Origin: a virus
DNA: 64,000 nucleotides
Virus record (IMG/VR): IMGVR_UViG_3300021400_001206
Span: 11,782 to 75,781 of that record
Reading direction: 5' to 3' (one strand)
Within the stretch, counting starts at the first letter, position 1. Each line of letters starts with the position of its first letter. This document shows, one piece after another, positions 37,590 to 56,125 of the stretch. Under the pieces are notes generated by a model. That model made no database searches. It was not told where the DNA came from and saw only the letters and a list, made by a program, of their open reading frames with translations. The translations under genes and the position numbers were made by a program.

Positions 37590-37660
37590 GGCTAACGTGA
37601 ACAGCCGTTCGGGCACCGAAAAATTATACCACACAGCGATGCAGTTTGTCAAGACTAAAT
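37590..37660 (-). ncRNA. promoter-plus-GC-hairpin element (copy 1): minus-strand TTGACA-N18-TGgTATAAT firing into hairpin GTGCCCGAACGGCTGTTCACG
   Basis: Reverse complement of ATTATACCACA-N10-TTTGTCAA gives consensus -10/-35. Transcript would begin in the GC hairpin and end at the upstream bidirectional terminator. Confidence 0.4.
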
Positions 37661-37781
37661 TATTCGTCAAATGTAACAAAAAGAAACACCTAAAATTGGG
37701 CAAAATTATTTACTAAAACCTATTGACAAAAGAGGGCAAGCATGATATGATAGTATCATCAAAAGAAAGGAGAACAAAGAC

Positions 37782-38087
37782 ATGACAAGCAACCACTACA
37801 GTTCAGACAGAAAAAAGAGAGAAGAACTTATTCAAATGATCGGTTTAGGAACACCAGTAAAAGAAGTTAGAGTAGACAGAGGACATCGCAACGGCGCTGA
37901 AATCCACGTTATCAGCACAACAGCAATCATCACAATCTACAATGAGAGAACACACAAAATGATAACAAAACTTATTGCAAGACCAGGTCAGATAAAAAGA
38001 TACTACAACGCAAATGAAACAATTCCAACAGACCTGCTGAGACTTGCAAAAGAACACACAAAAGCTGGATATAATGAAGTAAGATAA
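37782..38087 (+). CDS. cassette protein (101 aa)
   Basis: Own promoter TTGACAaaagagggcaagcatgaTATGAT, RBS AAAGGAGAACAAAGAC, terminator GGCGGAAACGCC+T-run. Confidence 0.55.
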   Translation: MTSNHYSSDRKKREELIQMIGLGTPVKEVRVDRGHRNGAEIHVISTTAIITIYNERTHKMITKLIARPGQIKRYYNANETIPTDLLRLAKEHTKAGYNEVR

Positions 38088-38109
38088 AGGCGGAAACGCC
38101 TTTATTTTT

Positions 38110-38200
38110 TATATAACCGACTGACCCGAACGGTCGTTCGGGGCCCGCAAAATTATACCACATATGAGTGCGGTTTGTCAAGACTAAATTATTCGTCAAA
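38110..38200 (-). ncRNA. promoter-plus-GC-hairpin element (copy 2)
   Basis: AAAATTATACCACATATGAGTGCGGTTTGTCAAGAC reverse-complements to TTGACA-N18-TGgTATAAT. Hairpin CCCGAACGGTCGTTCGGG. Confidence 0.4.
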
Positions 38201-38319
38201 TGTGACAAAAAACAAATCCTATTTTTATGCAATATTTTTAATATAATTTTTAAAAAACTATTGACACCAAAAACCTAACATGATATACTTATATCATCAA
38301 GAGAGAGGAGAACAAAAAA

Positions 38320-38469
38320 ATGACAAACTTCATCAACTACATCGTAGGAAAAGACATTAGAGACAAGGACGACAAAATCCTGCACTACGCAATCTTAGCA
38401 TGGACATTCGCTGGTTCAATTCTTGGTATCGTTGTTATGACAGCTGAGTGCCTTGGATATATCGCATAA
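38320..38469 (+). CDS. cassette small membrane protein (49 aa)
   Basis: MTNFINYIVGKDIRDKDDKILHYAILAWTFAGSILGIVVMTAECLGYIA. Promoter TTGACAccaaaaacctaacatgaTATACT. Confidence 0.45.
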   Translation: MTNFINYIVGKDIRDKDDKILHYAILAWTFAGSILGIVVMTAECLGYIA

Positions 38470-38485
38470 ATAAAAAAAAATAAAA

Positions 38486-38520
38486 AAGGGCTTGACAAAA
38501 GCCAAGCCCTTTGATATAAT
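38486..38520 (+). promoter_or_regulatory. terminator-promoter module: hairpin AGGGCTTGacaaaaGCCAAGCCCT contains the -35 TTGACA; TTTGATATAAT follows
   Basis: Spacer 17 nt, extended -10 TGaTATAAT. The hairpin terminates the upstream gene. Confidence 0.6.
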
Positions 38521-38550
38521 AAAATCATCAAAGGAAAGGAAATAAAAAAA

Positions 38551-38820
38551 ATGAAAAATATTTATTTTGAAAGAATCAATAATTTAGTCCTTGCTCTTAA
38601 TGATAATGAAGTCCCCTGCAATGTAGAAAATTGTTATGACGGTTACAAAGTAACTTTTCCTTGGTGCAAAGGTGATGTAATTGCTCATTCTGGAATGTAC
38701 AACAATGAAGATTATGGATATACGGTGGAGTCTTTCGGGTTCCCGTGGGATGGATGTGATGTTACAGTGCTCAGTGTAAGAGAAGCCGTTGAATTAATCA
38801 CTGACTTCTATGGGGCTTAA
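38551..38820 (+). CDS. cassette protein (89 aa), paralog of 42558-42827
   Basis: MKNIYFERINNLVLALNDNEVPCNVENCYDGYKVTFPWC. About 65% identical to MKNNYFETIADLVLALCDNGIPCNVEDLYDGYKVTFPWC. Confidence 0.6.
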   Translation: MKNIYFERINNLVLALNDNEVPCNVENCYDGYKVTFPWCKGDVIAHSGMYNNEDYGYTVESFGFPWDGCDVTVLSVREAVELITDFYGA

Positions 38821-38832
38821 AAAAATTAAAAA

Positions 38833-38867
38833 TGGGGGTTGACAAATTTCAACCCCCATGATATAAT
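38833..38867 (+). promoter_or_regulatory. terminator-promoter module (GGGGGTTGacaaatttCAACCCCC + ATGATATAAT)
   Basis: Same architecture as 38486. Confidence 0.6.
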
Positions 38868-38899
38868 AAGACCATAGAAAAGAAAAGGAGATTAAAAAA

Positions 38900-39136
38900 A
38901 TGACATTTGAAATGACACTTGGACTTATCGCTCTTGGCTCCGCAATTGCAATGTTTGGTCTTTTCTTCCTTAGCATTTGCTTCTCAGCAAAAAAGGCTGA
39001 AAAAGATTTAAAGGAAAACTTAGAACACATGGCTAAAATCGATGAAGTGTTTAAGGAAAAAGCGAAAAGAGAAGGCTACGGAAACAGACTTGAAAACTTA
39101 GAAAACTTTAATATAAGTGACATTTGGAATTGCTAA
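38900..39136 (+). CDS. cassette membrane protein (78 aa), paralog of 42236-42472
   Basis: MTFEMTLGLIALGSAIAMFGLFFLSICFSAKKAEKDLKENLEHMAKIDEVF, ~88% identical to its paralog. Confidence 0.6.
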   Translation: MTFEMTLGLIALGSAIAMFGLFFLSICFSAKKAEKDLKENLEHMAKIDEVFKEKAKREGYGNRLENLENFNISDIWNC

Positions 39137-39210
39137 AAAAAAATAAAAAAGGCTTGACAAAAGTCAAGCCTTTTGATATACTTATATCATCAAGAGAGAG
39201 GAGAACAAAA

Positions 39211-39411
39211 ATGATAGTTCATTACATGGTAACAAGCGGAGACTGGTGCATGGGAGCTCATTCAAGATATAATTCTTATGAAGAAGCTAAAAAAGAATAT
39301 GAAGTATGCAAAGAAAACAGTATCTATGGTTCATTAAAAAAGGTTACTATCAAAGGCTTTTTAAAGAAAAACATCTTTATCGAGGAAATCGAAAGTTTTT
39401 CAATTAAGTAA
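39211..39411 (+). CDS. cassette protein (66 aa)
   Basis: ATG at 39211 after GAGAGAGGAGAACAAAA. The track ORF 39124 start lies in the promoter module. Confidence 0.5.
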   Translation: MIVHYMVTSGDWCMGAHSRYNSYEEAKKEYEVCKENSIYGSLKKVTIKGFLKKNIFIEEIESFSIK

Positions 39412-39479
39412 CATAAAGGGTTGACAACTCCAACCCTTTATGTTACAATAAAATCATCAAAAGAAAGGAAATAAAAAAA

Positions 39480-39662
39480 ATGACAACATTTGTAGTATGG
39501 GTAATAGATTCTGCGGGACGGCACTGGGAAGAAGAAACTTTCACTATTTATGAAGCCGCTTATAATTTTGGAGCTCATCTGGCGGAAGACATGTGTGCTG
39601 AAGAAGATTGGTATATTGAACGCCGTGTTGATGGACAGTTTGATTGTTATATAGGTTTTTAA
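39480..39662 (+). CDS. cassette acidic protein (60 aa)
   Basis: Promoter module GGGTTGACAACTCCAACCC + TGTTACAAT. Terminator ACTGGCAAAACGCCAGT + T7. Confidence 0.55.
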   Translation: MTTFVVWVIDSAGRHWEEETFTIYEAAYNFGAHLAEDMCAEEDWYIERRVDGQFDCYIGF

Positions 39663-39689
39663 AAAAATAAGAAACTGGCAAAACGCCAG

Positions 39690-39760
39690 TTTTTTTGTTA
39701 CCCCGAACGGTCGTTCGGGGTCCGAAAAATTATACCACGCGCGTCAGCCATTTGTCAACA
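39690..39760 (-). ncRNA. promoter-plus-GC-hairpin element (copy 3); predicted ~75-nt transcript hairpin-A7-hairpin-U tract
   Basis: Reverse complement TTGACAAATGGCTGACGCGCGTGGTATAAT. Transcript GGACCCCGAACGACCGTTCGGGGTAACAAAAAAACTGGCGTTTTGCCAGTTTCTTATTTTTTT. Confidence 0.45.
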
Positions 39761-39890
39761 AAAAAATATCCGTCAAAATGCACAAAGATCTCATCCTGAA
39801 ATTGTGCAATATTTTTTATAAAAAATTATTGACAAATATATATAATAGAGTTATAATTATATCATCAAAAGAAGAAAGGAAATAAAAAAA

Positions 39891-40052
39891 ATGACAACAA
39901 TCAACAACCTTCCGGCATACGCAAGCAACTATGAATACATGGTAGTAAGACTGATTGACGGTGAGTACTGGTTCTATGGTGCATATAGCAACGGTAAACG
40001 TGCTGAGAGTGTCGCTCTTGAAATCGGTGGAGAAATCATTCACAATAAATAA
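39891..40052 (+). CDS. cassette small protein (53 aa)
   Basis: Promoter TTGACAaatatatataatagagtTATAAT. RBS AAGAAAGGAAATAAAAAAA. Confidence 0.5.
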   Translation: MTTINNLPAYASNYEYMVVRLIDGEYWFYGAYSNGKRAESVALEIGGEIIHNK

Positions 40053-40057
40053 AAAAA

Positions 40058-40092
40058 TAAAAATGGGGGTTGACAAACCTCAACCCCCATGA
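40058..40092 (+). promoter_or_regulatory. terminator-promoter module (GGGGGTTGACAAACCTCAACCCCC + ATGATATAAT) driving an ORF-less unit
   Basis: Consensus hexamers with 17-nt spacer. Confidence 0.6.
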
Positions 40093-40107
40093 TATAATAA
40101 AATCATC

Positions 40108-40200
40108 AAAAGAAAGGAAGCAACAAAACAGAATAGGGTGGGCGGACGAGCCAAGCGCCGGTTGCTCATCTGAAATGCAGAAAGCTTCTAAAAAAATAAA
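40108..40200 (+). ncRNA. ORF-less cassette: candidate small RNA A (homolog of 45425-45510)
   Basis: GGGTGGGCGGACGAGCCAAGCGCCGGTTGCTCATCTGAAATGCAGAAAGCTTC aligns with GGTGGTCGGCAGAGCCTAGCGCCTATCGGCTATCTGAACAACGGAAAGTCACTTC, with a compensatory GAGC/GCTC versus AGCC/GGCT pairing. Longest ORF is only 18 codons. Confidence 0.4.
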
Positions 40201-40269
40201 AAAAGTAGTTGACAAACTACAAAACATCTGATATAATAAGACCATAGAAAAGAAAGAGAGGAAAACAAA

Positions 40270-40374
40270 ATGAAGTATATGATGTTTGAGGAACTGGTCA
40301 AGATGGTAGCATACAACGAAATCACCGAAGCGGAAGCTGAGGAAATCGCTGAAGAGCTTCTCAAAGATTTCTAA
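40270..40374 (+). CDS. cassette micro-protein (34 aa), paralog of 41747-41854
   Basis: MKYMMFEELVKMVAYNEITEAEAEEIAEELLKDF versus MMKYMMFEMLVEMVAKNELTEAEAEAVAEELLLPY. Confidence 0.5.
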   Translation: MKYMMFEELVKMVAYNEITEAEAEEIAEELLKDF

Positions 40375-40456
40375 AAAAAATTAAAAAGAGGGGTTGACAA
40401 ACCTCAGCCCCTCTGATATAATAGAATCATAGAAAAGAGAAAGAGAGGGAAACAAA

Positions 40457-40645
40457 ATGAAAATTTGGATTGTAAAAGGACACGCATACGCAACAAAAGA
40501 ACTTGCTAAAGAAGCTTGTGCTTATGCTAATTACTGTGAAGAGATGTGCGGTGGTTATGGTCTTTATGAAGTAACTGAAGCCGAAATTGAAACAGAAGTA
40601 AAAGAGAGAGTGCCAGAAAAATACAGAAAAATATATTGTAAATAA
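40457..40645 (+). CDS. cassette protein (62 aa)
   Basis: Promoter module GAGGGGTTGACAAACCTCAGCCCCTC + TGATATAAT. Confidence 0.55.
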   Translation: MKIWIVKGHAYATKELAKEACAYANYCEEMCGGYGLYEVTEAEIETEVKERVPEKYRKIYCK

Positions 40646-40689
40646 AATTAAAAAAGGGGTTGACAAACCTCAACCCCTTTGATATAATA

Positions 40690-40850
40690 AAGACATAAGG
40701 TAAGGGCAGTCAGAGAGGCTGACAGCAACACAAGGTTCGATTCCTTCCCCTACTTCGAAGGGTGTTTTAAAGCAAGTTCACCCAGACGAGGCGAGTAAGT
40801 TCTAAACTAAGTCGAAAATCTCCCACTCATATCAAAAACTTCTAAAAAAT
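40690..40850 (+). ncRNA. ORF-less cassette with tRNA-like T-arm (CAAGGTTCGATTCCTTC) and hairpin GTCAGagaggCTGAC; candidate structured RNA
   Basis: GGTTCGATTCC is the canonical tRNA T-arm sequence. A full cloverleaf could not be built by eye, so it is called tRNA-like only. Confidence 0.3.
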
Positions 40851-41111
40851 AAAAATAAAAGGTTGACAAACTTCAACCTATCTGATATAATAAAATCATC
40901 AAGAGAGAGGAACATAAAAAATGAGAGACCCGCCGTAAAAATCAACAAACTAAAGAAATGCGCCAGAGCCTGGGGACATTAGGGCGCGATGAATGCAGGC
41001 ACGGTGAGCGGACAAGTTCCCATCCCTCACCAAAAAAAAATAAAAAAAATAGTTGACAAATTCAGCTCGGTTTGATATAATAGAATCATCAAGAGAGAGG
41101 AGAACAAAAAC

Positions 41112-41303
41112 ATGACAACAATCATCATCGCCGAAGGAATCACAGCAACCATGACAAACCGCAAGGTAGAGCAGTACCGCAAGGCTATGGCGGCTACTGA
41201 GGCAAGTCGAAGCGTCTGGTGGGATGAACACTTCGACTGGTCGGACTGGGAAGAGTTCTGGAATGACGAGTTTGAAGCTTGGGAGAGATTTGTCAACTCC
41301 TGA
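41112..41303 (+). CDS. cassette acidic Trp-rich protein (63 aa)
   Basis: Promoter module at ~41048-41085. Protein ends WDEHFDWSDWEEFWNDEFEAWERFVNS. Confidence 0.55.
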   Translation: MTTIIIAEGITATMTNRKVEQYRKAMAATEASRSVWWDEHFDWSDWEEFWNDEFEAWERFVNS

Positions 41304-41304
41304 G

Positions 41305-41365
41305 TTTCGGCGCGCCGTGGGCGCACGGGCTTCGCCCGTTCAACCATTATAGCATATCCTCAGGG
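41305..41365 (-). ncRNA. promoter-plus-GC-hairpin element (copy 4)
   Basis: Reverse complement TTGACAAAACCCTGAGGATATGCTATAAT then GGCGCGCC-containing hairpin region. Confidence 0.4.
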
Positions 41366-41700
41366 TTTTGTCAATAGGCAAATTGCACAAAGATTTAGCA
41401 TAAAAATTTCCCATTTTTGTGCAATTTGCCTATTGACAAATCAGTGCAGATGTGCTTCTCGTCAAACTGCACAAAAATAACGCCCAAAACCACCTCATTT
41501 TTGTGCAATATTTCTACTTGACTTTTTTGAAGTTGTGCAAACTACACAAAAGAAGCGCTCTATTATTGTGCAGTTTGCACAAAAAAATTTTTTGTCAATA
41601 GTAAAAATAAAAAATAGCAAAATATACAAAATTTTTATGATCCTTTTGTGCAAAATGTAAAACCGCATAAAAATTAAAAAAATCATTTGACAAGTCTCTA
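41340..41700. promoter_or_regulatory. noncoding hub dense in TGTGCA/TGCACA dyads, with a perfect 25-bp inverted repeat TTTGTCAATAGGCAAATTGCACAAA ... TTTGTGCAATTTGCCTATTGACAAA
   Basis: At least 8 copies of TTGTGCAA/TTGCACAA within ~360 bp, including TGTGCAgttTGCACA. No ORF. Confidence 0.6.
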
Positions 41701-41746
41701 AAAAAGTAGTATTATTATATCAGAAACAAGAGAGGAGAACAAAAAA

Positions 41747-41854
41747 ATGATGAAGTACATGATGTTTGAAATGCTTGTAGAAATGGTCGCAAAAAACGAA
41801 CTGACTGAGGCTGAGGCTGAGGCGGTCGCTGAAGAACTTCTTCTTCCCTACTAA
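41747..41854 (+). CDS. cassette micro-protein (35 aa), paralog of 40270-40374
   Basis: See paralog. Promoter TTGACAagtctctaaaaaagtagTATTAT. Confidence 0.45.
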   Translation: MMKYMMFEMLVEMVAKNELTEAEAEAVAEELLLPY

Positions 41855-41934
41855 AAAAAATAAAAAAAGGGGGTTGACAAACCTCAACCCCTATAGTATA
41901 ATAAAGACAGATCAAAAGAAAAGGAGATAAAAAA

Positions 41935-42156
41935 ATGACAAAGGATTTCTACTACAACGTAAATGGTACAGAGTTTCATGATACAGTAGCTTTTGGACAG
42001 GCTTGGAAAGAAGCTAAGGCACTTGCTAGAGAAGAGCATTGCGGGATTGAAAGAACTGTAGTTTGTGGGGAAAACATTAGATACGAATTCTATGCAAAGG
42101 GCGGAATTTTCGTAGGCAATGAATTTAAAGCCGACTGGGATATGGAAATTCTTTAA
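41935..42156 (+). CDS. cassette protein (73 aa)
   Basis: Promoter module GGGGGTTGACAAACCTCAACCCC + TAGTATAAT. Confidence 0.55.
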   Translation: MTKDFYYNVNGTEFHDTVAFGQAWKEAKALAREEHCGIERTVVCGENIRYEFYAKGGIFVGNEFKADWDMEIL

Positions 42157-42235
42157 AAAAATAAAATAGGGGGTTGACAAATTCAATCCCCTATAGTATA
42201 ATAAGACCATAGAAAAGAAAGAGAGGAAATAAAAA

Positions 42236-42472
42236 ATGACATTCGAAATGACACTTGGACTTATTGCTTTTGGTTCTGCGGTTGTGATGTTCGGTTTCTT
42301 CCTTCTTAGTATTTACTTTTCAGCAAAAAAAGCTGAAAAAGATTTAAAAGAAAATTTAGAACATATGGCAAAAATTAATGAGGTGTTTGAAGAGAAGGCA
42401 AGAAGAGAAGGCTACGGAAACAGACTTGAAAATTTAGAAAATTTTAATATAAGCGACCTTTGGAATTGCTAA
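42236..42472 (+). CDS. cassette membrane protein (78 aa), paralog of 38900-39136
   Basis: See paralog. Confidence 0.6.
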   Translation: MTFEMTLGLIAFGSAVVMFGFFLLSIYFSAKKAEKDLKENLEHMAKINEVFEEKARREGYGNRLENLENFNISDLWNC

Positions 42473-42557
42473 AAAAAAATTAAAATGGGGGTTGACAAAT
42501 CAACCCCCGACTGATATAATAAAATCATCAAGAGAGAAAAAGAAAGGAAATAAAAAA

Positions 42558-42827
42558 ATGAAAAATAACTATTTTGAGACAATTGCTGATTTAGTCCTTG
42601 CTCTTTGTGATAATGGAATCCCCTGCAATGTAGAAGATTTATATGATGGTTACAAGGTGACTTTCCCTTGGTGTTGCGGTGATGTGATTGCTCACTCTTA
42701 TATGCTTGGCAAGGGTAAGCACAGATACACGGTTGAATCTATGGGATTCCCGTGGGATGAGGACGATGTCACATTGCTCGATGTGCAGGAAGCTATTGAT
42801 TTAATCACCAAGTACTATAAAGAATAA
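42558..42827 (+). CDS. cassette protein (89 aa), paralog of 38551-38820
   Basis: Start at ATG 42558 after AAAGAAAGGAAATAAAAAA. The track ORF 42492 start lies inside the promoter. Confidence 0.55.
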   Translation: MKNNYFETIADLVLALCDNGIPCNVEDLYDGYKVTFPWCCGDVIAHSYMLGKGKHRYTVESMGFPWDEDDVTLLDVQEAIDLITKYYKE

Positions 42828-42839
42828 AAGGGGGTTTTA

Positions 42840-42925
42840 ACCCCCTTTTTTCGTCGCCGCCTGGGCGGCCGGGCGCAGCCCGTGGAACCATTATAACATA
42901 CCTTCCAGCTTTTGTCAATAGGCAA
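42840..42925 (-). ncRNA. promoter-plus-GC-hairpin element (copy 5)
   Basis: Reverse complement TTGACAAAAGCTGGAAGGTATGTTATAAT. Hairpin CGCCGCCTGGGCGGCCGGGCGCAGCCCG. Confidence 0.4.
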
Positions 42926-43035
42926 TTTGTACAAAAAATTAGCTGAAAAAATTCCCAAATTTGTGCAATATTTTACTTGACTTCCTATGTAGGCTATGCT
43001 ATACTAGTATCATCAAGAGAGAGGAGAACACAGAC

Positions 43036-43203
43036 ATGACAGAGGCAATCGCAATCTACAACAAGACAATCGAGAATTTTGAATATATGGTCGGTCATAG
43101 GGCAAATATTTCTGACCGAATGGACCTTTGGTTCCGTATCGTTGATAGACTGGCAAAGACGCCGGATGAATACAAGGCTATGATGGAAGCCTTCCCGAAT
43201 TAA
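43036..43203 (+). CDS. cassette protein (55 aa)
   Basis: Promoter TTGACTtcctatgtaggctatgcTATACT. ATG at 43036. Confidence 0.5.
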   Translation: MTEAIAIYNKTIENFEYMVGHRANISDRMDLWFRIVDRLAKTPDEYKAMMEAFPN

Positions 43204-43441: not shown

Positions 43442-43458
43442 AAAGGGGGTAAATAAAA

Positions 43459-43844: not shown

Positions 43845-43914
43845 AACAAAAGGGGTTGACAAACCTCAACCCCTTTGATATAATAAATACAGAATAAAGG
43901 AAAGGAAAGAAAAA

Positions 43915-44151: not shown

Positions 44152-44159
44152 AAATGGGG

Positions 44160-44250
44160 GGCAAGTACCCTCATTTTTTGTCGCCTCGTGGGCGCGCGGG
44201 CCCTGCCCGCGGAACCATTATAGCATATAGGTTGGGTTTTTGTCAAGAGA
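44160..44250 (-). ncRNA. promoter-plus-GC-hairpin element (copy 6)
   Basis: Reverse complement TTGACAAAAACCCAACCTATATGCTATAAT. Hairpin GCGGGCAGGGCCCGCGCGCCCACGAGGCGAC. Confidence 0.4.
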
Positions 44251-44951: not shown

Positions 44952-45224
44952 ATGAAGATTTGTATTAATACTTGTTTTGGCGGTTTTGGTCTTTCAGATG
45001 AAGCTTTGCGGATGCTTGGATTTAAAACTCGTTATCCACTAATTTCTCGAACAGACCCTCGTCTAATCGAGGTAGTTAGCACTCTCGGAGAAGCCGCAAA
45101 CGGTTGTTTCGCTCGGCTTGCTATTGTAAGTATTCCGGATGAAGCTACTGATTGGGAGATTGACGAGTATGATGGCTCTGAGGGCATCATCTACGTTCTT
45201 GACGGAAAACTTCATCATATTTAA
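44952..45224 (+). CDS. cassette protein (90 aa)
   Basis: Promoter module GGGGGTTGACAACCTCGACCCC + TATGATATAAT. Confidence 0.55.
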   Translation: MKICINTCFGGFGLSDEALRMLGFKTRYPLISRTDPRLIEVVSTLGEAANGCFARLAIVSIPDEATDWEIDEYDGSEGIIYVLDGKLHHI

Positions 45225-45239
45225 AAACAGGGGGTAATA

Positions 45240-45330
45240 CCCTCTGTTTTTTTTCGTTCGGCGCGCCAACACTCGGGTTGGCGCGAAAAATCCATTATAC
45301 CACACCCTGAGTGGTTTTGTCAAGCATTTT
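45240..45330 (-). ncRNA. promoter-plus-GC-hairpin element (copy 7); predicted RNA GGAUUUUUCGCGCCAACCCGAGUGUUGGCGCGCCGAACG-A8-CAGAGGGUAUUACCCCCUG-U5
   Basis: Reverse complement GCTTGACAAAACCACTCAGGGTGTGGTATAATGG. Two hairpins, the second being the upstream gene's terminator read from the other side. Confidence 0.45.
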
Positions 45331-45424
45331 TTCGAAAAAAATTGCACAAAAAAATATCCCAAAATTAGTACAAAATTCCGACTTGTATTTTCTAAAAAAT
45401 TTTAGTATAATTATATCAAGATAA

Positions 45425-45510
45425 AGAAAGGACAACAAAATTAAGTAAGGTGGTCGGCAGAGCCTAGCGCCTATCGGCTATCTGAACAACGGAAAGTCAC
45501 TTCAAAAAAT
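45425..45510 (+). ncRNA. ORF-less cassette: candidate small RNA B (homolog of 40108-40200)
   Basis: See 40108-40200 alignment. Promoter TTGTATtttctaaaaaattttagTATAAT. Confidence 0.4.
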
Positions 45511-45932
45511 CTTAAAAAAACTGTTGACAAATAAAAAATCTTATGGTATAATAAATACATAAGATAAAGAAAGGACAGTGACACTCCCATGAGAGACCCG
45601 CCGACATAAGCCCTTTGAATTGAGCCTTTGGATGGGCATAAGGCTTAGAAAAAAAATAAAAAAAACTGTTGACAAAATAAAAAAGATATGATATAATAAA
45701 TACAGAAGTTAAGCAAAGGAAAGGACATTAAGTGTATGGGAGTCAGGCAGAAAGCCCCATGTAGGTGGATGTAAGGGGCTAACAAAAATACTATCAGCCA
45801 CGTGGTATAAGGCGCCAAATCCACGAAAACAAAATAAAAAAAAATAAAAAAACTGTTGACAAAATAAAAAAAATAAGTTATAATAAATACATAGTAAAGA
45901 AAACAAAACATAAAAAGAAAGAGGTGTCTAGT

Positions 45933-46289
45933 ATGACAAAACGTGAGATGTTCGCAGAAATTCGTAAGGTAGTTATTGACAACGCTGAGATGGTAGCTTT
46001 CATTGACAAGCAGATTGAGCTTCTTGACAATAGAAAGGCGTCCCCAAAGAAGCCGACTAAAACTCAGCTTGAGAACGAGGGCTTCAAGGCTGACATTATC
46101 GCTTCCCTCATTGAGGTTGGCAAGCCTGTAACAATTAAGGAGCTGTGTGACGCTTGTCCGTCCATTGTAAAGCTGTCCAATCAGAGAATTACTCACCTGC
46201 TCATGGCTCTCCAGTCTGAGAACAAGGTCGAGAGAACTCAGGTGAAGAAAGTTCCGTACTTCGCCATTGCTCAGACTGAGACTGAGTAA
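45933..46289 (+). CDS. cassette protein (118 aa), winged-helix-like; paralog of 53762-54103
   Basis: MTKREMFAEIRKVVIDNAEMVAFIDKQIELLDNRKASPKK..., ~55% identical to MTKREMFVAIREVVVDNADMVAFIDKEIALLDKKRNAPKK.... RBS AAGAAAGAGGTG. Confidence 0.55.
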   Translation: MTKREMFAEIRKVVIDNAEMVAFIDKQIELLDNRKASPKKPTKTQLENEGFKADIIASLIEVGKPVTIKELCDACPSIVKLSNQRITHLLMALQSENKVERTQVKKVPYFAIAQTETE

Positions 46290-46406: not shown

Positions 46407-46481
46407 GGGGGTGTAGCTCAGTAGGTTTAGAGCACACGACTTTTAATCGTGGTGTCGAGGGTTCGAATCCCTTCACCCCCA
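46407..46481 (+). tRNA. tRNA-Lys (anticodon UUU; loop CUUUUAA)
   Basis: Cloverleaf: acceptor GGGGGTG/CACCCCC, D-arm GCTC-AGTAGGTTTA-GAGC, anticodon stem CACGA/TCGTG, T-arm GAGGG-TTCGAAT-CCCTT, discriminator A. No encoded CCA. Confidence 0.7.
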
Positions 46482-46696
46482 CTCAGAATCTAATATTCGT
46501 TTTCCTTTCTTTTGGTGCGGGGGTTGTCGTAGATGGCAACCCCCTTTTGGCGTCGCGCGATGGGTCGCCGTGCGACGCCATTGTCAATATGTAATGTTGC
46601 ACAAATTTTTGATCCGCATTTTGTATAAAATTACTTATTGACTTTTTTCCTAATTTTTTGTATAATTATATCATCAACAGAAAGGAAATAAACGAT

Positions 46697-47467: not shown

Positions 47468-47703
47468 AATAAGGGGTTGACAACTCCAACCCCTTATGAT
47501 ATACTAATAACATAAGCGGTTCCACTGGATGCAAGTCGGAAGACCCGCAAATCTGCGGAGCGTCACCAGACGAAGATGATTAAATGTCGGATAAAAAGGA
47601 TGCAGCGCATCCCGACAGCCGCCTAAATAAAAAAATAAGGGGTTGACAACTCCAGCCCTTTATGATATACTAATATCATCAAGAAAAGAAAGGAAATAAA
47701 AAA

Positions 47704-48396: not shown

Positions 48397-48660
48397 ATGA
48401 AATATTACAAAATAACTTGCACAAATGGCTATTGTGGTTGTGATGAACATTTTTACATTCAAGCAGAATCTGAAAGTGAAGCCTGGGCTGAAGCAGACGA
48501 GATTTGTTCTGATGAATACTCTTTTGCTTATCCTGATGAGCGGTTTGTCGATGATATGGATAATTGGGATGAAATTGAAATGTATGAAATGAATGTTGAA
48601 GCTTACGTTGAAGAAATTTCAAAAGAGGAATATCTTGAAGCAGAAGAGCAGGGTTATTAA
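48397..48660 (+). CDS. cassette acidic protein (87 aa)
   Basis: Co-transcribed. Strongly acidic C-terminus. Confidence 0.5.
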   Translation: MKYYKITCTNGYCGCDEHFYIQAESESEAWAEADEICSDEYSFAYPDERFVDDMDNWDEIEMYEMNVEAYVEEISKEEYLEAEEQGY

Positions 48661-48760
48661 ACCCTACTTTTGTGCGGGACGTTGTCGCGCGGGCTGCGCC
48701 CGAAACTCCATTATACCACATAACCAGGCTTTTTGTCAATAGGCAATTTGAACAAAATTT
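48660..48760 (-). ncRNA. promoter-plus-GC-hairpin element (copy 8)
   Basis: Reverse complement TTGACAAAAAGCCTGGTTATGTGGTATAAT. Hairpins GGGCGCAGCCC and AGGGTTtaatAACCCT. Confidence 0.4.
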
Positions 48761-50102: not shown

Positions 50103-50124
50103 GAAAAATTAAGAAGAGTGGCAA

Positions 50125-50215
50125 TTGCCACTCTTTTTTCTATGGGGCGCGAGCCGTCGCCTCGCGCCGAAATTCCATTATACCATATCGCCGCACTTTT
50201 TGTCAATAGACAAAT
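50125..50215 (-). ncRNA. promoter-plus-GC-hairpin element (copy 9); predicted RNA GGAAUUUCGGCGCGAGGCGACGGCUCGCGCCCCAUAG-A6-GAGUGGCAAUUGCCACUCUUCUUAAUUUUUC
   Basis: Reverse complement CTATTGACAAAAAGTGCGGCGATATGGTATAATGGAAT. Terminates at the hairpin shared with the 49923 gene. Confidence 0.45.
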
Positions 50216-50760: not shown

Positions 50761-50824
50761 AAAGTATTGACAAATAGCAAATAATAAAGTATAATATATA
50801 TAACATCAAAAAAGGAGATAAAAA

Positions 50825-51004
50825 ATGGAAAAGAAAATGTATGTACTGGTTAATGGCGTGGGAGACCCTGCATGTTTTTACAAGCTTACACAGGAAGAGC
50901 GTTTTGTAATTGAAGACATTCTTTATGAAACAGGAACGGACTATGAACTTCGCTCTATTGAAGATATTGAATTCACAGAAATTAAAGGAGAAAAATATGA
51001 ATAA
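50825..51004 (+). CDS. cassette protein (59 aa; coordinates +/-1)
   Basis: MEKKMYVLVNGVGDPACFYKLTQEERFV.... Promoter TTGACAaatagcaaataataaagTATAAT. Confidence 0.45.
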   Translation: MEKKMYVLVNGVGDPACFYKLTQEERFVIEDILYETGTDYELRSIEDIEFTEIKGEKYE

Positions 51005-51455
51005 AGAAATCTTAAAAGCCATTGAAGACAAACAGAAAAAGCATCCTTTCCGTGACTGGTGGAATAGTGACGATAGTTTGAAAGCAAGAAGAATTATCTT
51101 CTTCCCCATTTGGATTTATGTTGTAATTAGCGATAAAATCAAAAAATGGAATTATGACCGCACAACTTGGGATGAAAAAAGAGCTGATGAAATTCTTACT
51201 TATTACATCCCCCGAACAAGTGATTGGAACCCCGATGATAAAACCTTTTTCTTTTATGATAATGGAATGGGGTGGAGCATAGGACTTGCAAAAAAATATT
51301 TAAAAATAAAAGACCGTCTTTTTTGGAGAAAATTCAATTGGGCAATTGAAGAATATCTTAATAATAAATTTGAATTAGAAGGGTTTGAAAAAGAAGTTAT
51401 AAGCACTCGTTCTTACTACACTGGTACAGAAATTATTTTTAAACAAAAGTCTTGA
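50997..51455 (+). CDS. cassette protein (152 aa), co-transcribed (ATGA overlap)
   Basis: MNKEILKAIEDKQKKHPFRDWWNSDD.... The track ORF 50910 start is probably too far upstream. Confidence 0.5.
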   Translation: MNKEILKAIEDKQKKHPFRDWWNSDDSLKARRIIFFPIWIYVVISDKIKKWNYDRTTWDEKRADEILTYYIPRTSDWNPDDKTFFFYDNGMGWSIGLAKKYLKIKDRLFWRKFNWAIEEYLNNKFELEGFEKEVISTRSYYTGTEIIFKQKS

Positions 51456-51510
51456 CAAATAATAATTTCTGTATTATAATTAAATCATCAAAAAGAAAGG
51501 AAATAAAAAA

Positions 51511-51741
51511 ATGACAAAAGAAATTGAATTTATGGGATACACTCTTACAGACGATGAATGTGAAGCACTTCATAAATGTTTAATGGAAATTAAAGAAAAG
51601 AAAAGACATGACCAGTTGATTCAGGCATGTAAAACTAACATCTCCTTTCAGATTAGTGACGCTATTACCTTAATCGGTCTTGCTGAAACTAAAAGGCTTG
51701 TAAGAGAATTGAATCGGGAACTGAGAGGATATGAGGATTAA
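51511..51741 (+). CDS. cassette protein (76 aa)
   Basis: Promoter TTGACAaataataatttctgtaTTATAAT. Confidence 0.55.
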   Translation: MTKEIEFMGYTLTDDECEALHKCLMEIKEKKRHDQLIQACKTNISFQISDAITLIGLAETKRLVRELNRELRGYED

Positions 51742-51754
51742 GAGGGCTTATACC

Positions 51755-51850
51755 CTCTTTTTTTTGATGGCGCGCCAGCCATCGGACTGGCGCGAAAAAT
51801 CCATTATAACATATCCCGCATGTTTTTGTCAAGCATTTTTTGCAAAAAAT
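51755..51850 (-). ncRNA. promoter-plus-GC-hairpin element (copy 10)
   Basis: Reverse complement GCTTGACAAAAACATGCGGGATATGTTATAATGGAT. Hairpin CGCGCCAGtccgatggCTGGCGCG (contains GGCGCGCC). Confidence 0.45.
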
Positions 51851-52039
51851 TTGCACAAATTTTTTTCCCAAAATTTGTGCAAATTTCCAACTTGTATTTT
51901 GTGTCGTTATCCCTTATAATGATAATTGTCAAGAGAAAAAGCTAAAACAAAAGAAACAAAAAAAATTAAAAAACCTCTTGACAACTCAAACATAATCATG
52001 TATAATAAAGACATAAGATAAAGGAAAGGAAAAAACAAC

Positions 52040-52756
52040 ATGGACAGACGGAAAAATTATTACCTTACACTTGACACTGAAACTTGTGGGAGCCTTGGCG
52101 AACCGCTTGTATATGACATTGGCTATACTATCCATGATAAAAAGGGTGTTATTTATGAAAGACGCTCTTATGTTGTAAGAGAAATTTTTTATGGTGAGTG
52201 GAAGAAAATGAGAACCGCTTACTATGCTGAAAAGATTCCCTCATATAAAGAGGGTATCAAGATAGGTAAGTGGACTGTAAAATCTTTTTGGGAAATTCGC
52301 AAGGAAATTTTTTCTCTTATGAGAAAGTATAATATAAAAGCCGTGGTTGCCTATAATGCGGGTTTTGACACAAGGGCACTAAATTCAACTCTTAACTATC
52401 TGAGCAAATTTGATGAAAAGCAGACCTTTTTCAATGAAAAAACTGTTATTTGGTGTTCATGGGGTATGAGCTGTCAGACAATTTTCAAACAGAAAACATT
52501 CTTTAAACTTGCCAATCGTGAAGCATGGGTCAGTGAAGCAGGGAATGTAAAAACATCGGCTGAAATTGCCCACCGCTATCTTAATAAAGAACTTGATTTT
52601 GAGGAAGCCCACACCGCCCTTGAAGATGCACTAATTGAAACATCTATCTTTGCTAAGTGCATGGCACAGCATAAGAAAATGGATAAAAATATTTTAGTTA
52701 TGCCGTGGCGGATTCCTCAACCTGATTTTAAAGCGTTTCTTGCGGAATGTGCCTAA
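52040..52756 (+). CDS. DEDDh-family 3'-5' exonuclease (DnaQ/RNase T-like), 238 aa
   Basis: Exo I LTLDTETCG, Exo II YNAGFD, Exo III AHTALEDALIE (H-x4-D). Confidence 0.7.
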   Translation: MDRRKNYYLTLDTETCGSLGEPLVYDIGYTIHDKKGVIYERRSYVVREIFYGEWKKMRTAYYAEKIPSYKEGIKIGKWTVKSFWEIRKEIFSLMRKYNIKAVVAYNAGFDTRALNSTLNYLSKFDEKQTFFNEKTVIWCSWGMSCQTIFKQKTFFKLANREAWVSEAGNVKTSAEIAHRYLNKELDFEEAHTALEDALIETSIFAKCMAQHKKMDKNILVMPWRIPQPDFKAFLAECA

Positions 52757-52838
52757 AATAAAAAATTAAAAATAGGGATTGACAAAACAATCCCTATTTG
52801 ATATAATAATATCATCAAGAAAAGAAAGGATAAAAAAA

Positions 52839-53006
52839 ATGAAAAAAGAACTGTATGTATTGTATCTACCTTGTTCAGAACCTAGATTTTTGAATCTTAC
52901 TAAGGGAGAAGCAAATTTGGTTGAAGAAATTTTGGATTTAGTTTCTGTTGAAGTAGAATTTGAGAAAGTAGCCAATTTTGATATTTTTGAAGTAATGGGG
53001 GATTAA
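52839..53006 (+). CDS. cassette acidic protein (55 aa)
   Basis: Promoter module AGGGATTGACAAAACAATCCCT + TTGATATAAT. Confidence 0.5.
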   Translation: MKKELYVLYLPCSEPRFLNLTKGEANLVEEILDLVSVEVEFEKVANFDIFEVMGD

Positions 53007-53009
53007 AAA

Positions 53010-53186
53010 ATGGAAACTAGAATGACAATGTTTATTATTTTTGTAATTGTTATGTTTATTGGTCACATTGCAGATTGCTACACTAAATGGTATGACGATA
53101 TATGGGAGCCGTATTTTAGTAAGGCTGTACAGGCTTCTTGCTTCCGCTTGGCGTTCATCTGTATCGTGTATTTTATCTTTATGTAA
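53010..53186 (+). CDS. cassette membrane peptide (~58 aa)
   Basis: METRMTMFIIFVIVMFIGHIADCY.... Followed by terminator AAATCCGcatatGCGGATTT + T-run. Confidence 0.4.
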   Translation: METRMTMFIIFVIVMFIGHIADCYTKWYDDIWEPYFSKAVQASCFRLAFICIVYFIFM

Positions 53187-53249
53187 ACCAATTAATAAAA
53201 TCCGTATATGCGGATTTTATTTTTTCTCTTGACACTTTTACACTTTAGT

Positions 53250-53345
53250 GCGCTAAAGTCGCCCCGCGGGGGCTCGGGCAAAGCCCGAAAATTCCATTAT
53301 ACCACATCGCTCGATTTTTGTCAATAGACAAAATAAACAAAAATC
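53250..53345 (-). ncRNA. promoter-plus-GC-hairpin element (copy 11)
   Basis: Reverse complement GTCTATTGACAAAAATCGAGCGATGTGGTATAATGGAA. Hairpins CGGGCtttGCCCG and GCCCCCGCGGGGC. Confidence 0.45.
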
Positions 53346-53761
53346 TCACTCTAAAAATCCCATAATTTGTGCATAATCCCATATTGATTTTTTAAAAAAT
53401 TTTTAGTATAATAGTTATACAAGGTAAGGGAAAAACACCTTGAAGGGTCAAGAAAAAAAATAAAAAAAGTTCTTGACAAATAAAAAAACCTATGTTATAA
53501 TAAATACATAAGGTAAGGAAAGTCAAAGAAGTCAACCACTAAAAATTTATTTTATCTCGGTGACAATGCAAACAACCCCTAACTAAACTTAGGATAAAAC
53601 AACCCCAGAGCGCAAAAATCCGTTATAATAAGAGGCTGGTTACGGATAAAAAGAGATAAAAAAAGTTAAAAAAGTTCTTGACAAACAAAAGACCTTATGT
53701 TATAATAATAACATAGAAAACAAACAAACAACAATTTTTACAAAAGAAAGAGGTGTCTAGT

Positions 53762-54103
53762 ATGACAAAGAGAGAAATGTTCGTAGCAATCCGTGAAGTA
53801 GTTGTTGACAATGCAGATATGGTCGCTTTTATTGACAAGGAAATTGCACTTCTTGATAAGAAGAGAAATGCTCCTAAGAAGCTGACCGACACCCAGCTTG
53901 AGAATGAGCGTTGCAAGGCTGACATTATTGCCTATCTGATTGAGGTAGACCAGCCGAAAAACATCTCTGAAATTCAGGCGGATGTTGCTTCTGTCGCTAA
54001 GTTCTCAAATCAGAGAATTACACACATCCTGTCTGCGCTTGTCGCTGATAGTAAGGTAGTAAAGACTTACGTTAAGAAGAGACCGTATTTCTCAATCGCA
54101 TAA
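53762..54103 (+). CDS. cassette winged-helix-like protein (113 aa), paralog of 45933-46289
   Basis: See paralog. Upstream are two ORF-less promoter units (53480-53750). Confidence 0.55.
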   Translation: MTKREMFVAIREVVVDNADMVAFIDKEIALLDKKRNAPKKLTDTQLENERCKADIIAYLIEVDQPKNISEIQADVASVAKFSNQRITHILSALVADSKVVKTYVKKRPYFSIA

Positions 54104-54215
54104 GTTTCCCAGTGGGGGAAGTAAAAAAACTTCCCCCACTTTGAAAAAAATGCTTGACAAAAGCTAGGGAATACGATATAATAAGACCATAGAAAAGAAA
54201 AGAGAGGATTCAAAC

Positions 54216-54608
54216 ATGAAATACGATTTTAATGGAAAGACAATCAATATTCCCGATGCTGAACTTGAAAAAAGCATGAAACTCCTGGGGCTGTCAAAAG
54301 AAGAAGCTATTGAGATGTACCTTGAGGATGAGGGATACCTTGAAAATGAGGAAGTGGAAGAGCTGACCAAAAAAGCTAAGGCTAATAAAATCAATCATGA
54401 AGCCAAAGCTGATAAGCCTAGAAAGGCGGTCAAGCGTGAGCGGAAACCTGATGTTGAAAAGGAAAAAATTATTGAAATCCTTGCAAATTGTCTGAAAAAT
54501 GAGGGTTTTGTAGCGGAAATTACAAATAAATCCAAGCTGATTGAGTTCTCTGTCGGTGAAAATCACTACAAACTGGATTTAGTGAAGAAAAGACCGCCGA
54601 AAAAGTAA
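54216..54608 (+). CDS. cassette protein (130 aa), Lys/Glu-rich C-terminus
   Basis: Promoter TTGACAaaagctagggaatacgaTATAAT. Confidence 0.55.
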   Translation: MKYDFNGKTINIPDAELEKSMKLLGLSKEEAIEMYLEDEGYLENEEVEELTKKAKANKINHEAKADKPRKAVKRERKPDVEKEKIIEILANCLKNEGFVAEITNKSKLIEFSVGENHYKLDLVKKRPPKK

Positions 54609-54689
54609 ATAATCTGACATTTTAAGTCAGTTTTTCGTCAAAATGACGAAAAACTGACTATTTTTTTGTTAAAAATTACTACTTGACAA

Positions 54690-54750
54690 CCATATTCTGA
54701 TATGATATAATGGTTGGCCCGTCGCGGAGCGCCGGGCGCCGCAATTTGTC
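54690..54750 (+). ncRNA. promoter-plus-GC-hairpin element, plus-oriented copy (TTGACAaccatattctgatatgaTATAAT then GGCCCGTCGCGGAGCGCCGGGCGCCGC)
   Basis: Same architecture as the minus-strand copies but in direct orientation. Confidence 0.4.
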
Positions 54751-54862
54751 AAGATGTAATATTTAACAAATTTTTCACCGCACTTTTGTATAAAATGCCA
54801 GGTTGACATTTTTCCTAAAATTTATTATAATTTATACATAAGATAAAGAAAGGAAGTAAACA

Positions 54863-55099
54863 ATGAAAACAGAAACTATTACAATGGATGGTATTCAAAA
54901 TTGGATTTTAACGAAATATGAAACCGCATGTGTCTTTAAAAAAGTTGATTCAACCACAAGTATAGAAACTCTTATAAACGGCTGTCAAGGTGTAATTGAT
55001 TTTATTTCTAGCTGTCATCCTGATTGGCGTAATGATTTGCTTAGTTGGTGGTATGAAAAAATACTTCCTAAATTCAAAAAATTAGAAAAAAATGCTTGA
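54863..55099 (+). CDS. cassette protein (78 aa)
   Basis: Promoter TTGACAtttttcctaaaatttatTATAAT, identical to the one before 47276. Confidence 0.55.
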   Translation: MKTETITMDGIQNWILTKYETACVFKKVDSTTSIETLINGCQGVIDFISSCHPDWRNDLLSWWYEKILPKFKKLEKNA

Positions 55100-55313
55100 C
55101 AAACCATTTATTAGCTGTTATAATAAATATATCAAATGAAAGGAAATAAAAATATGGATTGGGAAAAAATTTGTCATGCTGTTCAGAATCAAGCTTTTGT
55201 AATTAAATATTGTCTTTTTATAAATATTATAAGAAGTATTTCAAATGAAGATTTAGAGTATCTTTTGGTAGAAATGGAATGTGAAATAGAAAATAAAGAA
55301 AGGAAATAAAAAA

Positions 55314-55586
55314 ATGGATGAAAAAATTGTAAACATTTACTTTGATGAACCCGCCCTTCCCTCAACAACTATGTTTCACTTTATGTACTCTTTAAGACCT
55401 TTTATTATGGCTGAGGGTCCAAGAGCAAGTGATGGGGTTATTTTTATAGATTTAACAAATGGATGGGCTTATACTTGGGATGACCTTGCACTTTCTGATT
55501 TATACTTTTATGGTGCGGATGGCAAGGAAAGAGATGATAATGACGATGAATTCTATGGTGTTGCGGTGATTGGTGAAATTTGGTAA
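55314..55586 (+). CDS. cassette protein (90 aa)
   Basis: Follows a 51-aa ORF at ~55134-55289. RBS AAGAAAGGAAATAAAAAA. Confidence 0.5.
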   Translation: MDEKIVNIYFDEPALPSTTMFHFMYSLRPFIMAEGPRASDGVIFIDLTNGWAYTWDDLALSDLYFYGADGKERDDNDDEFYGVAVIGEIW

Positions 55587-55599
55587 GGAAGGTGATAAA

Positions 55600-55788
55600 A
55601 TGAAGAAAGCAAATATAACTTTTATGACATATGATTTTTTTGAAGCTGTTATCCCTGATGACGTCTATGAAACAAAAAATTGTAGAAAAGCTATTGAAAT
55701 AGCTCAAAAACAAATGTTTGAAGAACTGGGGTATAATTGCACTGACTATGATGATGTTGAAATTGACTTTGTGGATGAAGAGGATTAA
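55600..55788 (+). CDS. cassette acidic protein (62 aa)
   Basis: MKKANITFMTYDFFEAVIPDD...DDVEIDFVDEED. Confidence 0.45.
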   Translation: MKKANITFMTYDFFEAVIPDDVYETKNCRKAIEIAQKQMFEELGYNCTDYDDVEIDFVDEED

Positions 55789-55791
55789 TAA

Positions 55792-55962
55792 ATGACAGAA
55801 AAAGAAATATTCTTAAATATGTTGAAAAGAGTTTGTGGTTATGAACCTGGTGATTCTTTATTTTACTGGGAAGAGGGAGACACTGTTGTTATTACTAATG
55901 AACAGGATGAAATAACTAATTTTAATTTTGATGATAAAGGTAATTTAATTTGGTATTATTAA
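55792..55962 (+). CDS. cassette protein (56 aa)
   Basis: Followed by terminator GGGCGGAAACGCCC + T-run. Confidence 0.45.
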   Translation: MTEKEIFLNMLKRVCGYEPGDSLFYWEEGDTVVITNEQDEITNFNFDDKGNLIWYY

Positions 55963-56014
55963 TTTTTCAATAAAGGGCGGAAACGCCCTTATTTTTATTT
56001 TTTTTAAAATAATC

Positions 56015-56125
56015 TTGACAAACTACATTATTATGTGGTATAATCGTCGGCCCGCTGGCCTCCAGCCGAGGGCCGCTCCGCCACTCCAGACCCCTTAGGC
56101 GACTTTTTTCCAGAACATGGCCGAT
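56015..56125 (+). ncRNA. promoter-plus-GC-hairpin element, plus-oriented copy with CCCCTTAGGC repeats and U-tract terminator
   Basis: CTTGACAaactacattattatgtgGTATAAT then GTCGGCCCGCTGGCCTCCAGCCGAGGGCCGCTCCGCC...CCCCTTAGGCGACTTTTTT. Confidence 0.45.

Follow-up and report, generated by a model that had tools for sequence, protein, structure and literature searches.

A consensus promoter facing backward into a strand-symmetric GC palindrome: a candidate cassette-boundary module in TAG-recoded gut phages

Why would a phage carry a promoter of perfect consensus that fires against its own genes, straight into a GC-rich palindrome whose sequence changes from copy to copy? The question is raised by a 64,000-nucleotide stretch of an uncultivated gut phage (IMG/VR record IMGVR_UViG_3300021400_001206, positions 11,782 to 75,781; hereafter the window, numbered from its first letter), in which this promoter-palindrome element recurs among small genes. 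A first-pass annotation made from the letters alone had proposed a family of small RNA (sRNA) genes, with a bidirectional insulator among the alternatives. The latter appears to fit the data better. Judged from sequence, a boundary module acting in cis accounts for the observations better than a conventional sRNA gene does: a tight head-on promoter and a hairpin on both strands would hinder or stop sense read-through, the accompanying short antisense RNA with its 5' hairpin would be a by-product or helper, and the site would also be a recombination junction between gene cassettes. We put the probability of this reading at roughly 40%.

Between 37.5 and 56.1 kb the window, whose GC content is about 30%, holds 11 minus-strand and 2 plus-strand perfect TTGACA-N17/18-TGnTATAAT promoters, each adjoining a GC-rich palindrome (Table 1). 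All 13 copies that had been listed are present, with positions and promoter string correct, and on recount each matches TTGACA-N17/18-TATAAT at 12 of 12 positions and has TG at -15/-14. Under the stricter pattern TTGACAA-N10-13-TRTGNTATAATGGW-N5-SG there are 9 matches against 0.00 expected from 100 shuffles. The small-gene region holds 48 perfect 12/12 promoters of the sigma-70 type in 19.5 kb, 11 of them on the minus strand. The 64 kb contain 14 blocks that reach 75% GC or more over 28 nt. Of these, eleven are listed copies (9 minus, 2 plus) and the remaining three are a decayed copy at 46547-46582, a block in a late-gene interior and one behind another promoter at 40134, so that 12 of the 14 belong to promoter-palindrome elements; elsewhere in the genome such blocks are nearly absent. 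The copies at 37633 and 39739 fall slightly under the threshold, and the decayed copy, which extends to 46591, occupies the sole large gap in the series. As had been described, the hairpins differ from copy to copy, with the exception of the near-identical pair at 38162 and 39739.

The element is not confined to this genome. A pattern scan of IMG/VR gave at least 116 loci, and the family figures in this text rest on the matches listed: at least 241 unique promoter-plus-GC-block instances after removal of duplicates, in more than 100 related uncultivated-phage contigs. A more specific pattern matched 23 contigs in GTDB genomes, all of them gut or rumen contigs of metagenome-assembled genomes and many assigned to Clostridia. 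A host chromosomal origin was rejected, as these contigs resemble mis-binned phage and no isolate genome is among them. The nearest named relative, the gut phage Phass-1 (OQ749652.1; L117-L119), has five such promoters at 129-133 kb, four of which form two convergent pairs. These units, at 129144, 130714/130804 and 132917/133008 of the record, lie unannotated near its right end, and the genome paper mentions no promoters, hairpins or repeats (PMC10607447). Megablast and blastn searches with the region and with one element against 50,697 deposited phage records gave no relevant match, nor was a close relative of the window found among them; the element was missed because it is too short and AT-rich for BLAST, and the Phass-1 copies were found by pattern scan. 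Nothing relevant was found in the literature, either on the motif or on a consensus promoter joined to a GC-rich hairpin. No Rfam 15 family matches the element, only a tRNA-Lys passing its gathering score, and at E-values of up to 5 across 37-57 kb the hairpins remain without a match, the hits being spurious, miRNA-like and located on promoter inverted repeats.

Two promoter types can be distinguished in the family. In P1 (164 of the 241 instances) an AT-rich GGAAATTT spacer follows the -10 box, and the GC block sets in at a distance of 8-9 nt, which corresponds to the predicted +1/+2. In P2 (77 instances) this distance is 2-4 nt, and the predicted start falls inside the palindrome. With purine skew as a proxy, the genes on either side of P1 run opposite to it in 91% of 179 cases, and P2 is co-directional with the genes in 75% of 89. 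Open reading frames (ORFs) within the window confirm these orientations, in agreement with the earlier description of the element as lying 3' of, and antisense to, cassette genes. That description had treated the 13 copies as a single unit, which holds for the 11 on the minus strand; the two on the plus strand are of the P2 sub-type, and the TGTCAA following the one at 54683 is the -35 box of a decayed facing promoter. None of the 11 minus-strand copies has a facing promoter within 100 nt. Family-wide, 65 of 241 instances (27%) are convergent P2-palindrome-P1 pairs, with a -10 to -10 gap of mostly 36-38 nt. The GC block peaks at 27-31 bp in length and ends 36-38 nt past the -10 box, and the commonest hairpin span is 27 nt. 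Among the 164 P1 copies TTGACA is found in 99%, TG in 95%, TATAAT in 94% and a GG discriminator in 73%, values that partly reflect a detection filter demanding near-consensus boxes; the plus-strand gene promoters (TATAAT-AA/AT) lack the GG. Across 10 aligned copies from the window and related contigs neither TTGACAAAA nor the T.TG.TATAAT box with its following G varies, and the second G hardly does, at a mean column identity of 59%. The GC block and the flanks change while the promoter, with its TRTG extended -10, stays, which suggests that the promoter is under selection.

Is there selection on the palindrome as well, and on which strand? Its folding z-score averages -3.0 against shuffles, and each stem column uses both G-C and C-G across many copies. 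The first-pass annotation had named a covariance analysis as a check. In 33 same-length copies 89.6% of cells pair, compared with 62.8% in shuffles and 31-42% in slid controls, and double-sided changes number 72 against 24 in shuffles; since these copies were selected because they fold, it is the covariation counts that are informative and not the percentage paired. If the RNA from P1 were all that mattered, G·U pairs should exceed A·C positions; when G·U-type pairs are counted by strand, that of P1 has 82 and the other 100. The adjacent terminators of the upstream genes (T1) served as a control and give 72 on the gene strand versus 19 on the other, an asymmetry which demonstrates that the test has power. 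Together, the symmetry of the palindrome and the T1 control point to selection on both strands or at the DNA level. Thus a gene for a one-strand sRNA is only partly supported: a predicted promoter of its own is there as a perfect, conserved sigma-A consensus, whereas a structure selected on the transcribed strand is not seen.

The same counts bear on the view that P1 makes abundant, stable, trans-acting small RNAs, which would begin with a 5'-triphosphate and a GC hairpin and act as decoy, sponge or regulator, for example against a host RNase, an RNA-binding protein or a defence sensor. The hairpin had been placed downstream of a leader; in fact it starts at the predicted +1/+2 itself, and in Firmicute RNA decay a hairpin at the very start protects from 5'-end-dependent degradation. 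A terminator of hairpin and T-run in the direction of P1 would end the transcript within 80 nt at about 8 of the 11 minus-strand copies. For these the predicted 60-90 nt RNA of hairpin, A-tract, hairpin and U-tract stands, and a short leftward RNA from most window copies is plausible; at 41356 (copy 4), P1 reads straight into the upstream gene, and 51813 (copy 10) has no T-run. Loops are purine-rich on the P1 strand (0.58), though this strand is pyrimidine-rich overall, their k-mers are biased to it (AGGA 11 versus 1, CGAA 7 versus 0), and a 3' flank (G)CCGAC(A)n recurs. On the other hand, the stems are strand-symmetric for G·U versus A·C, unlike the neighbouring terminators, and a defined 3' end does not appear to be a trait of the family: with a crude detector, an own-direction T-run terminator was found in 24 of the 164 P1 copies and none in 109, while 31 run into a convergent promoter. 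The hairpin sequences vary between copies, which makes a sequence-specific partner unlikely, and Rfam holds no matching family. Overall, the sRNA reading appears weakened, and we consider its trans-acting form unlikely, if well worth keeping in mind.

Several more specific roles for the hairpin sequence were rejected or look unlikely. An antisense target elsewhere in the window was rejected, as no complement of at least 14 nt exists there. A Chi-like or other shared short sequence was likewise rejected, as no k-mer is common to all copies. Outside paralogous pairs, any sequence shared between copies stays below 8 nt, so mimicry of a single CRISPR repeat is unlikely. Integron attC sites are imperfect palindromes of 57-141 bp with R and L core boxes (RYYYAAC ... 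GTTRRRY) and come with an integrase. Here the palindrome measures 27-31 bp, every stem column varies and there is no conserved core, so this identity was rejected too; none of the few ORFs scanned was an integrase, and no search was aimed at one.

How might the element work at a cassette boundary? Along the gene strand the order is constant: the last gene of a block, T1, the GC block, P1, TTGCACAA, a spacer with TTTCCCAnAAT, TTGTGCAA, the forward promoter and the next block. In our proposal, blocks of small early genes are separated by a conserved module of which the element forms the upstream half, the whole being composed of T1, the 27-31 bp palindrome, a backward host sigma-A promoter with every known strength element, a TTGTGCAA-type motif and the forward promoter. 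P1 would be bound very tightly by RNA polymerase and fire head-on toward T1, and the palindrome would give a stable hairpin in the RNA of either strand, the hairpin being needed in both transcripts. Together they would stop or hamper sense transcription that reads through T1 or begins at P2, and each block would be transcribed separately. The antisense RNA, with its hairpin at the extreme 5' end and in the window usually ending at T1 after about 60-90 nt, may be a by-product, or may assist by base-pairing to the upstream mRNA at its 3' end. Blocks could also be exchanged between phages at the conserved promoter arms. By an estimate from textbook footprints, a sense polymerase would meet the P1-bound one while still in the U-tract of T1, which would improve termination.

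Several observations weigh against this proposal. The meeting point is an estimate from footprints, and a roadblock alone would need no palindrome. Nor is the palindrome a canonical intrinsic terminator, that is, a GC-rich hairpin followed directly by a U-tract of 7-9 nt on the transcribed strand: the U-tract is missing on both sides, where an A-run follows in the direction of P1 and GAAAUUUCC in that of the genes. In convergent pairs the palindrome is followed by CCAUUUUA, no more than a weak U-tract. The benefit of insulation is not obvious, as the internal genes each have a consensus promoter of their own already, and the purine-rich loops on the P1 strand hint at some strand-specific role of the RNA.

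Are there precedents for regulation by facing promoters? At helD and pps of B. subtilis a strong antisense promoter faces the sense promoter and makes an RNA of about 90 nt that ends before the terminator of the upstream gene (PMC12802891). The likeness extends to the strong sigma-A antisense promoter with extended -10, to the short antisense RNA ending at or before an upstream terminator, and to regulation by polymerase traffic without a protein, which is what we propose here. There, however, the element stands before one regulated gene, whereas here dozens of copies per phage lie at block boundaries, most without a facing sense promoter, and a covarying GC palindrome fills the gap. The spacing differs as well. 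Starts at helD are 39 bp apart, so both polymerases fit, and cutting 17 bp from this distance abolished regulation (PMC12802891); here, with -10 boxes mostly 36-38 nt apart, the predicted starts would be about 23-25 bp from each other, close to the shortened variant that lost regulation.

Along the same lines, a synthetic part combining a unidirectional terminator with a constitutive antisense promoter represses the upstream gene in proportion to antisense strength, via collisions and antisense RNA (Brophy & Voigt 2016, PMC4731013). Its layout of gene, sense terminator and strong antisense promoter is the same, but it was engineered in E. coli and has no palindrome between terminator and promoter. 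Many T1 terminators of the window are moreover bidirectional and would truncate antisense transcripts. Mobile elements and phages likewise have short antisense RNAs made from convergent promoters, as known from IS10 (RNA-OUT with pIN-pOUT), lambda oop, P22 sar and Firmicute type I antitoxins, the latter sharing a bidirectional terminator. They resemble the element as small hairpin RNAs whose promoter converges on a gene and which overlap its end or promoter; they differ in having one conserved sequence and a defined mRNA target, in contrast to the free sequence, the strand-symmetric structure and the lack of a consistently overlapped coding target found here. We take the element for a variant, not described before, of known promoter/stem-loop and antisense-interference devices. 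A more novel interpretation, which we entertain only tentatively, would be an undescribed cis device in which an inward, maximally tight promoter is locked on a fixed-length two-strand hairpin as a polymerase barrier or switch, possibly sensing polymerase availability as helD senses rifampicin, or else a new family of phage decoy RNAs.

The strength of P1 also invites the idea of a polymerase sink for host take-over, in which a consensus promoter on GC-rich initial DNA traps host polymerase in long-lived open or abortive complexes and titrates polymerase and sigma-A as the phage replicates. All strength elements are present, including the GG discriminator that the plus-strand gene promoters lack, the DNA is GC-rich from +2, and at predicted starts about 23-25 bp apart in convergent pairs two polymerases would exclude each other. 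Yet about 50 plus-strand consensus promoters already titrate polymerase, and a sink would work without a palindrome and without a constant place and orientation at the ends of blocks; we hold this to be improbable. More improbable still is a role in the sense transcripts, as 5' stabiliser or processive-antitermination leader of P2-initiated or read-through mRNAs, comparable to the put RNA of phage HK022. P2 is co-directional with the genes, its predicted start within the palindrome would place the hairpin at the extreme 5' end, and some copies have two adjacent stem-loops right after the start site. But only 77 of the 241 instances are of the P2 type, 11 of the 13 window copies have no P2, the hairpins lack conserved bulges and are far shorter than put (about 70 nt), and the strand symmetry speaks against an RNA of one strand. 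The spacing of about 1-2.5 kb and the uniform orientation had also suggested lagging-strand priming, R-loop origins and polymerase-driven genome entry. These were dropped by argument: the elements are restricted to the early region, show no G/C skew and usually face a terminator.

What does the comparison of related phages tell us about the history of these boundaries? The hairpins are not hypervariable, a notion that was rejected on a median hairpin identity of 0.93 at 90-97% flank identity. At short distances the palindrome diverges about as fast as its flanks; the hairpin is merely unconstrained in sequence. In phage pairs that share only one flank, the homology breaks exactly at the proximal palindrome edge (L089 versus L020, L106 versus L054) or at the distal one (L098 versus L112, L122 versus L042), an observation from a handful of contig pairs. 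Many BLAST segments against the window end at 53285±1, 45281±3 and 42888±1, and the block order is mosaic among relatives. The breaks at the palindrome edges identify the element as a mosaic junction.

These findings would also suit an element acting at the DNA level, in which the palindrome extrudes as a cruciform or single-strand hairpin and the promoters serve mainly as conserved homology arms, so that the site is a recombination hot spot shuffling blocks. In its favour one can count the strand-symmetric stem selection, the exact homology breaks and clustered segment ends, the mosaic order with paralogous genes recurring between blocks, and the precedent of the promoter-early stem-loop cassettes (PeSLs) of T4-like phages, for which such a role has been proposed (PMC4122927). 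Homology arms, on the other hand, need no perfect -35, extended -10, -10, discriminator, exact spacing or fixed distance to a palindrome, and the hairpin diverges no faster than its flanks at short distance. In the twin-domain model, positive supercoiling builds up between converging transcription, where the site lies, and would disfavour cruciform extrusion. As to a candidate enzyme, the large ORFs scanned belong to replication, packaging and nucleotide-metabolism families, with no search aimed at recombinases, and ten cassette proteins had no Pfam family above threshold. We regard this DNA-level reading as rather unlikely.

The PeSLs of T4-like phages are repeated promoter/stem-loop motifs flanking small ORFan genes in plastic early regions (Arbiol 2010, PMC2839356; Comeau 2014, PMC4122927). 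Like the element, they lie at insertion and replacement junctions between related phages. They differ in consisting of a terminator followed by a promoter in gene direction, whereas here a backward promoter runs into a GC palindrome that is not a terminator, and the phages are Firmicute phages with TAG recoding. Another repeat of the window comes closer to a PeSL. At about 45 plus-strand consensus promoters between 37284 and 55124 the -35 box lies inside a GC hairpin (GGGGGTTGACAAAcctCAACCCCC; for instance 40063-40098, 42487-42520 and 43849-43884), and these units are presumably what the first-pass annotation had counted as its first repeated element. T-runs follow these hairpins, with terminator scores, on the minus strand. 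They therefore look like antisense terminators that are leaky at best for sense transcription, and antisense transcription in the window would be halted quickly.

The boundary also carries motifs that may bind a regulator. TTGTRYA keeps to 16 or 26-27 nt from the -35 box, two spacings one helical turn apart. TTGTGCAA-N8-TTGACAA forms an inverted repeat that overlaps the -35 box and persists beside hairpins without a -10 box, for which reasons we suspect a putative operator. The non-coding region behind copy 4 (Table 1), which includes the perfect 17 bp palindrome TTGTGCAGTTTGCACAA at 41566-41582, looks like a candidate operator cluster.

Table 1. Positions of the promoter-palindrome copies and associated features in the window. 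The -35 box starts at the higher coordinate of each minus-strand promoter and at the lower coordinate of the two plus-strand copies.
Feature	Position	Strand	Remark
P1 promoter, copy 1	37623-37652	-	TTGACA-N18-TGTGGTATAAT
GC-rich hairpin block, copy 1	37590-37618	-	bidirectional terminator of upstream gene 37555-37582
P1 promoter, copy 2	38152-38181	-	
GC palindrome, copy 2	38121-38149	-	CCCCGAACGACCGTTCGGG; near-identical to copy 3
P1 promoter, copy 3	39729-39758	-	
GC palindrome, copy 3	39701-39724	-	terminator-like site 39672-39692 (minus strand)
P1 promoter, copy 4	41346-41374	-	
Double GC hairpin, copy 4	41309-41339	-	few nt past upstream stop codon, no intervening terminator
Non-coding region behind copy 4	41380-41690		at least 6 TTGTGCAA/TTGCACAA motifs in about 300 bp
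P1 promoter, copy 5	42890-42918	-	
Double GC hairpin, copy 5	42853-42883	-	bidirectional terminator 42826-42849
P1 promoter, copy 6	44217-44246	-	
Double GC hairpin, copy 6	44180-44210	-	terminator 44157-44172
P1 promoter, copy 7	45294-45323	-	
GC palindrome, copy 7	45258-45287	-	CGCGCCAAC...GTTGGCGCG; terminator 45223-45251
Decayed copy	46547-46591	-	GC palindrome, then directly TGTCAA and TTGCACAA motif; -10 box missing
P1 promoter, copy 8	48710-48739	-	
GC hairpins, copy 8	48671-48705	-	terminator 48647-48668
P1 promoter, copy 9	50177-50206	-	
GC palindrome, copy 9	50139-50174	-	terminator 50114-50135
P1 promoter, copy 10	51803-51832	-	
GC palindrome, copy 10	51766-51797	-	terminator of upstream gene 51740-51759, plus strand only
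P1 promoter, copy 11	53296-53324	-	
Double GC hairpin, copy 11	53248-53286	-	terminator 53194-53221
P2-type copy, same direction as genes	54683-54749	+	GC block 4 nt past -10 box, then TGTCAA without -10 box
P2-type copy, longer GC-rich region (about 55 nt)	56015-56096	+	membership less certain

The blocks themselves consist of about 56 small plus-strand genes between 33.6 and 56 kb, almost all without a family match and several paralogous between blocks (the pairs 38551/42558, 38900/42236 and 40270/41747). Some consensus plus-strand promoters fire into stretches free of credible ORFs, a few of them relatively GC-rich (40070-40210, 40660-40870, 45400-45900, 47477-47650 and 53473-53760). These have no Rfam match and may be further non-coding RNAs or leaders. 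The segments 45836-46144 and 53658-53949 are paralogous and conserved across many related contigs. At 45933-46289 and 53762-54103, 3' of conserved non-coding segments, lie genes for paralogous proteins of 118 and 113 residues (MTKREMF...NQRITH(L/I)L...), possible DNA-binding regulators that have no Pfam match. Mini-ORFs with good ribosome-binding sites at 40921-40938 and 45589-45609 encode MRDPP* and MRDPPT*, and a similar product, MISDARPPP*, is encoded at locus L105 (about 6433-6462); their R-x-P-P ending recalls RAPP-type ribosome-arrest peptides.

Elsewhere the genome is more readily classified. At 1-10 kb the plus strand carries genes for a DnaE-type polymerase, a Dda-like helicase and an anaerobic ribonucleotide reductase. 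The minus strand at 10967-33529 becomes a compact array of long genes once TAG is read as a sense codon, with the portal and large terminase identified by PHROGs. These late and structural genes, terminase and portal included, contain 1-11 in-frame TAG codons each and the plus-strand early genes almost none, which implies recoding of TAG to an amino acid (code 15). No suppressor tRNA was found within the window, whose sole tRNA is tRNA-Lys(UUU) at 46407-46482. The late array begins behind its own perfect TTGACA-N17-TATAAT promoter (33589, minus strand; array from 33529), so late timing may rest on TAG suppression and not on a special promoter. Phass-1, the nearest named relative, belongs to the 'code 15 clade' with a portal identity of 38%, and its host is thought to be Clostridia (PMC10607447).

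No cultured model exists for the TAG-recoded phages of gut and rumen Clostridia, in whose early regions nearly all genes are ORFans. A conserved, recognisable boundary signal would let annotators divide such regions into transcription units and would flag the sites at which blocks are exchanged between phages. If the proposed mechanism is true, it would be a natural case of insulation by polymerase collision, a principle so far seen mainly in synthetic parts and two B. subtilis genes, and the compact (about 100 bp), sequence-free design could become an engineering part. If instead the short RNAs act in trans, they would constitute a large new family of phage non-coding RNAs.

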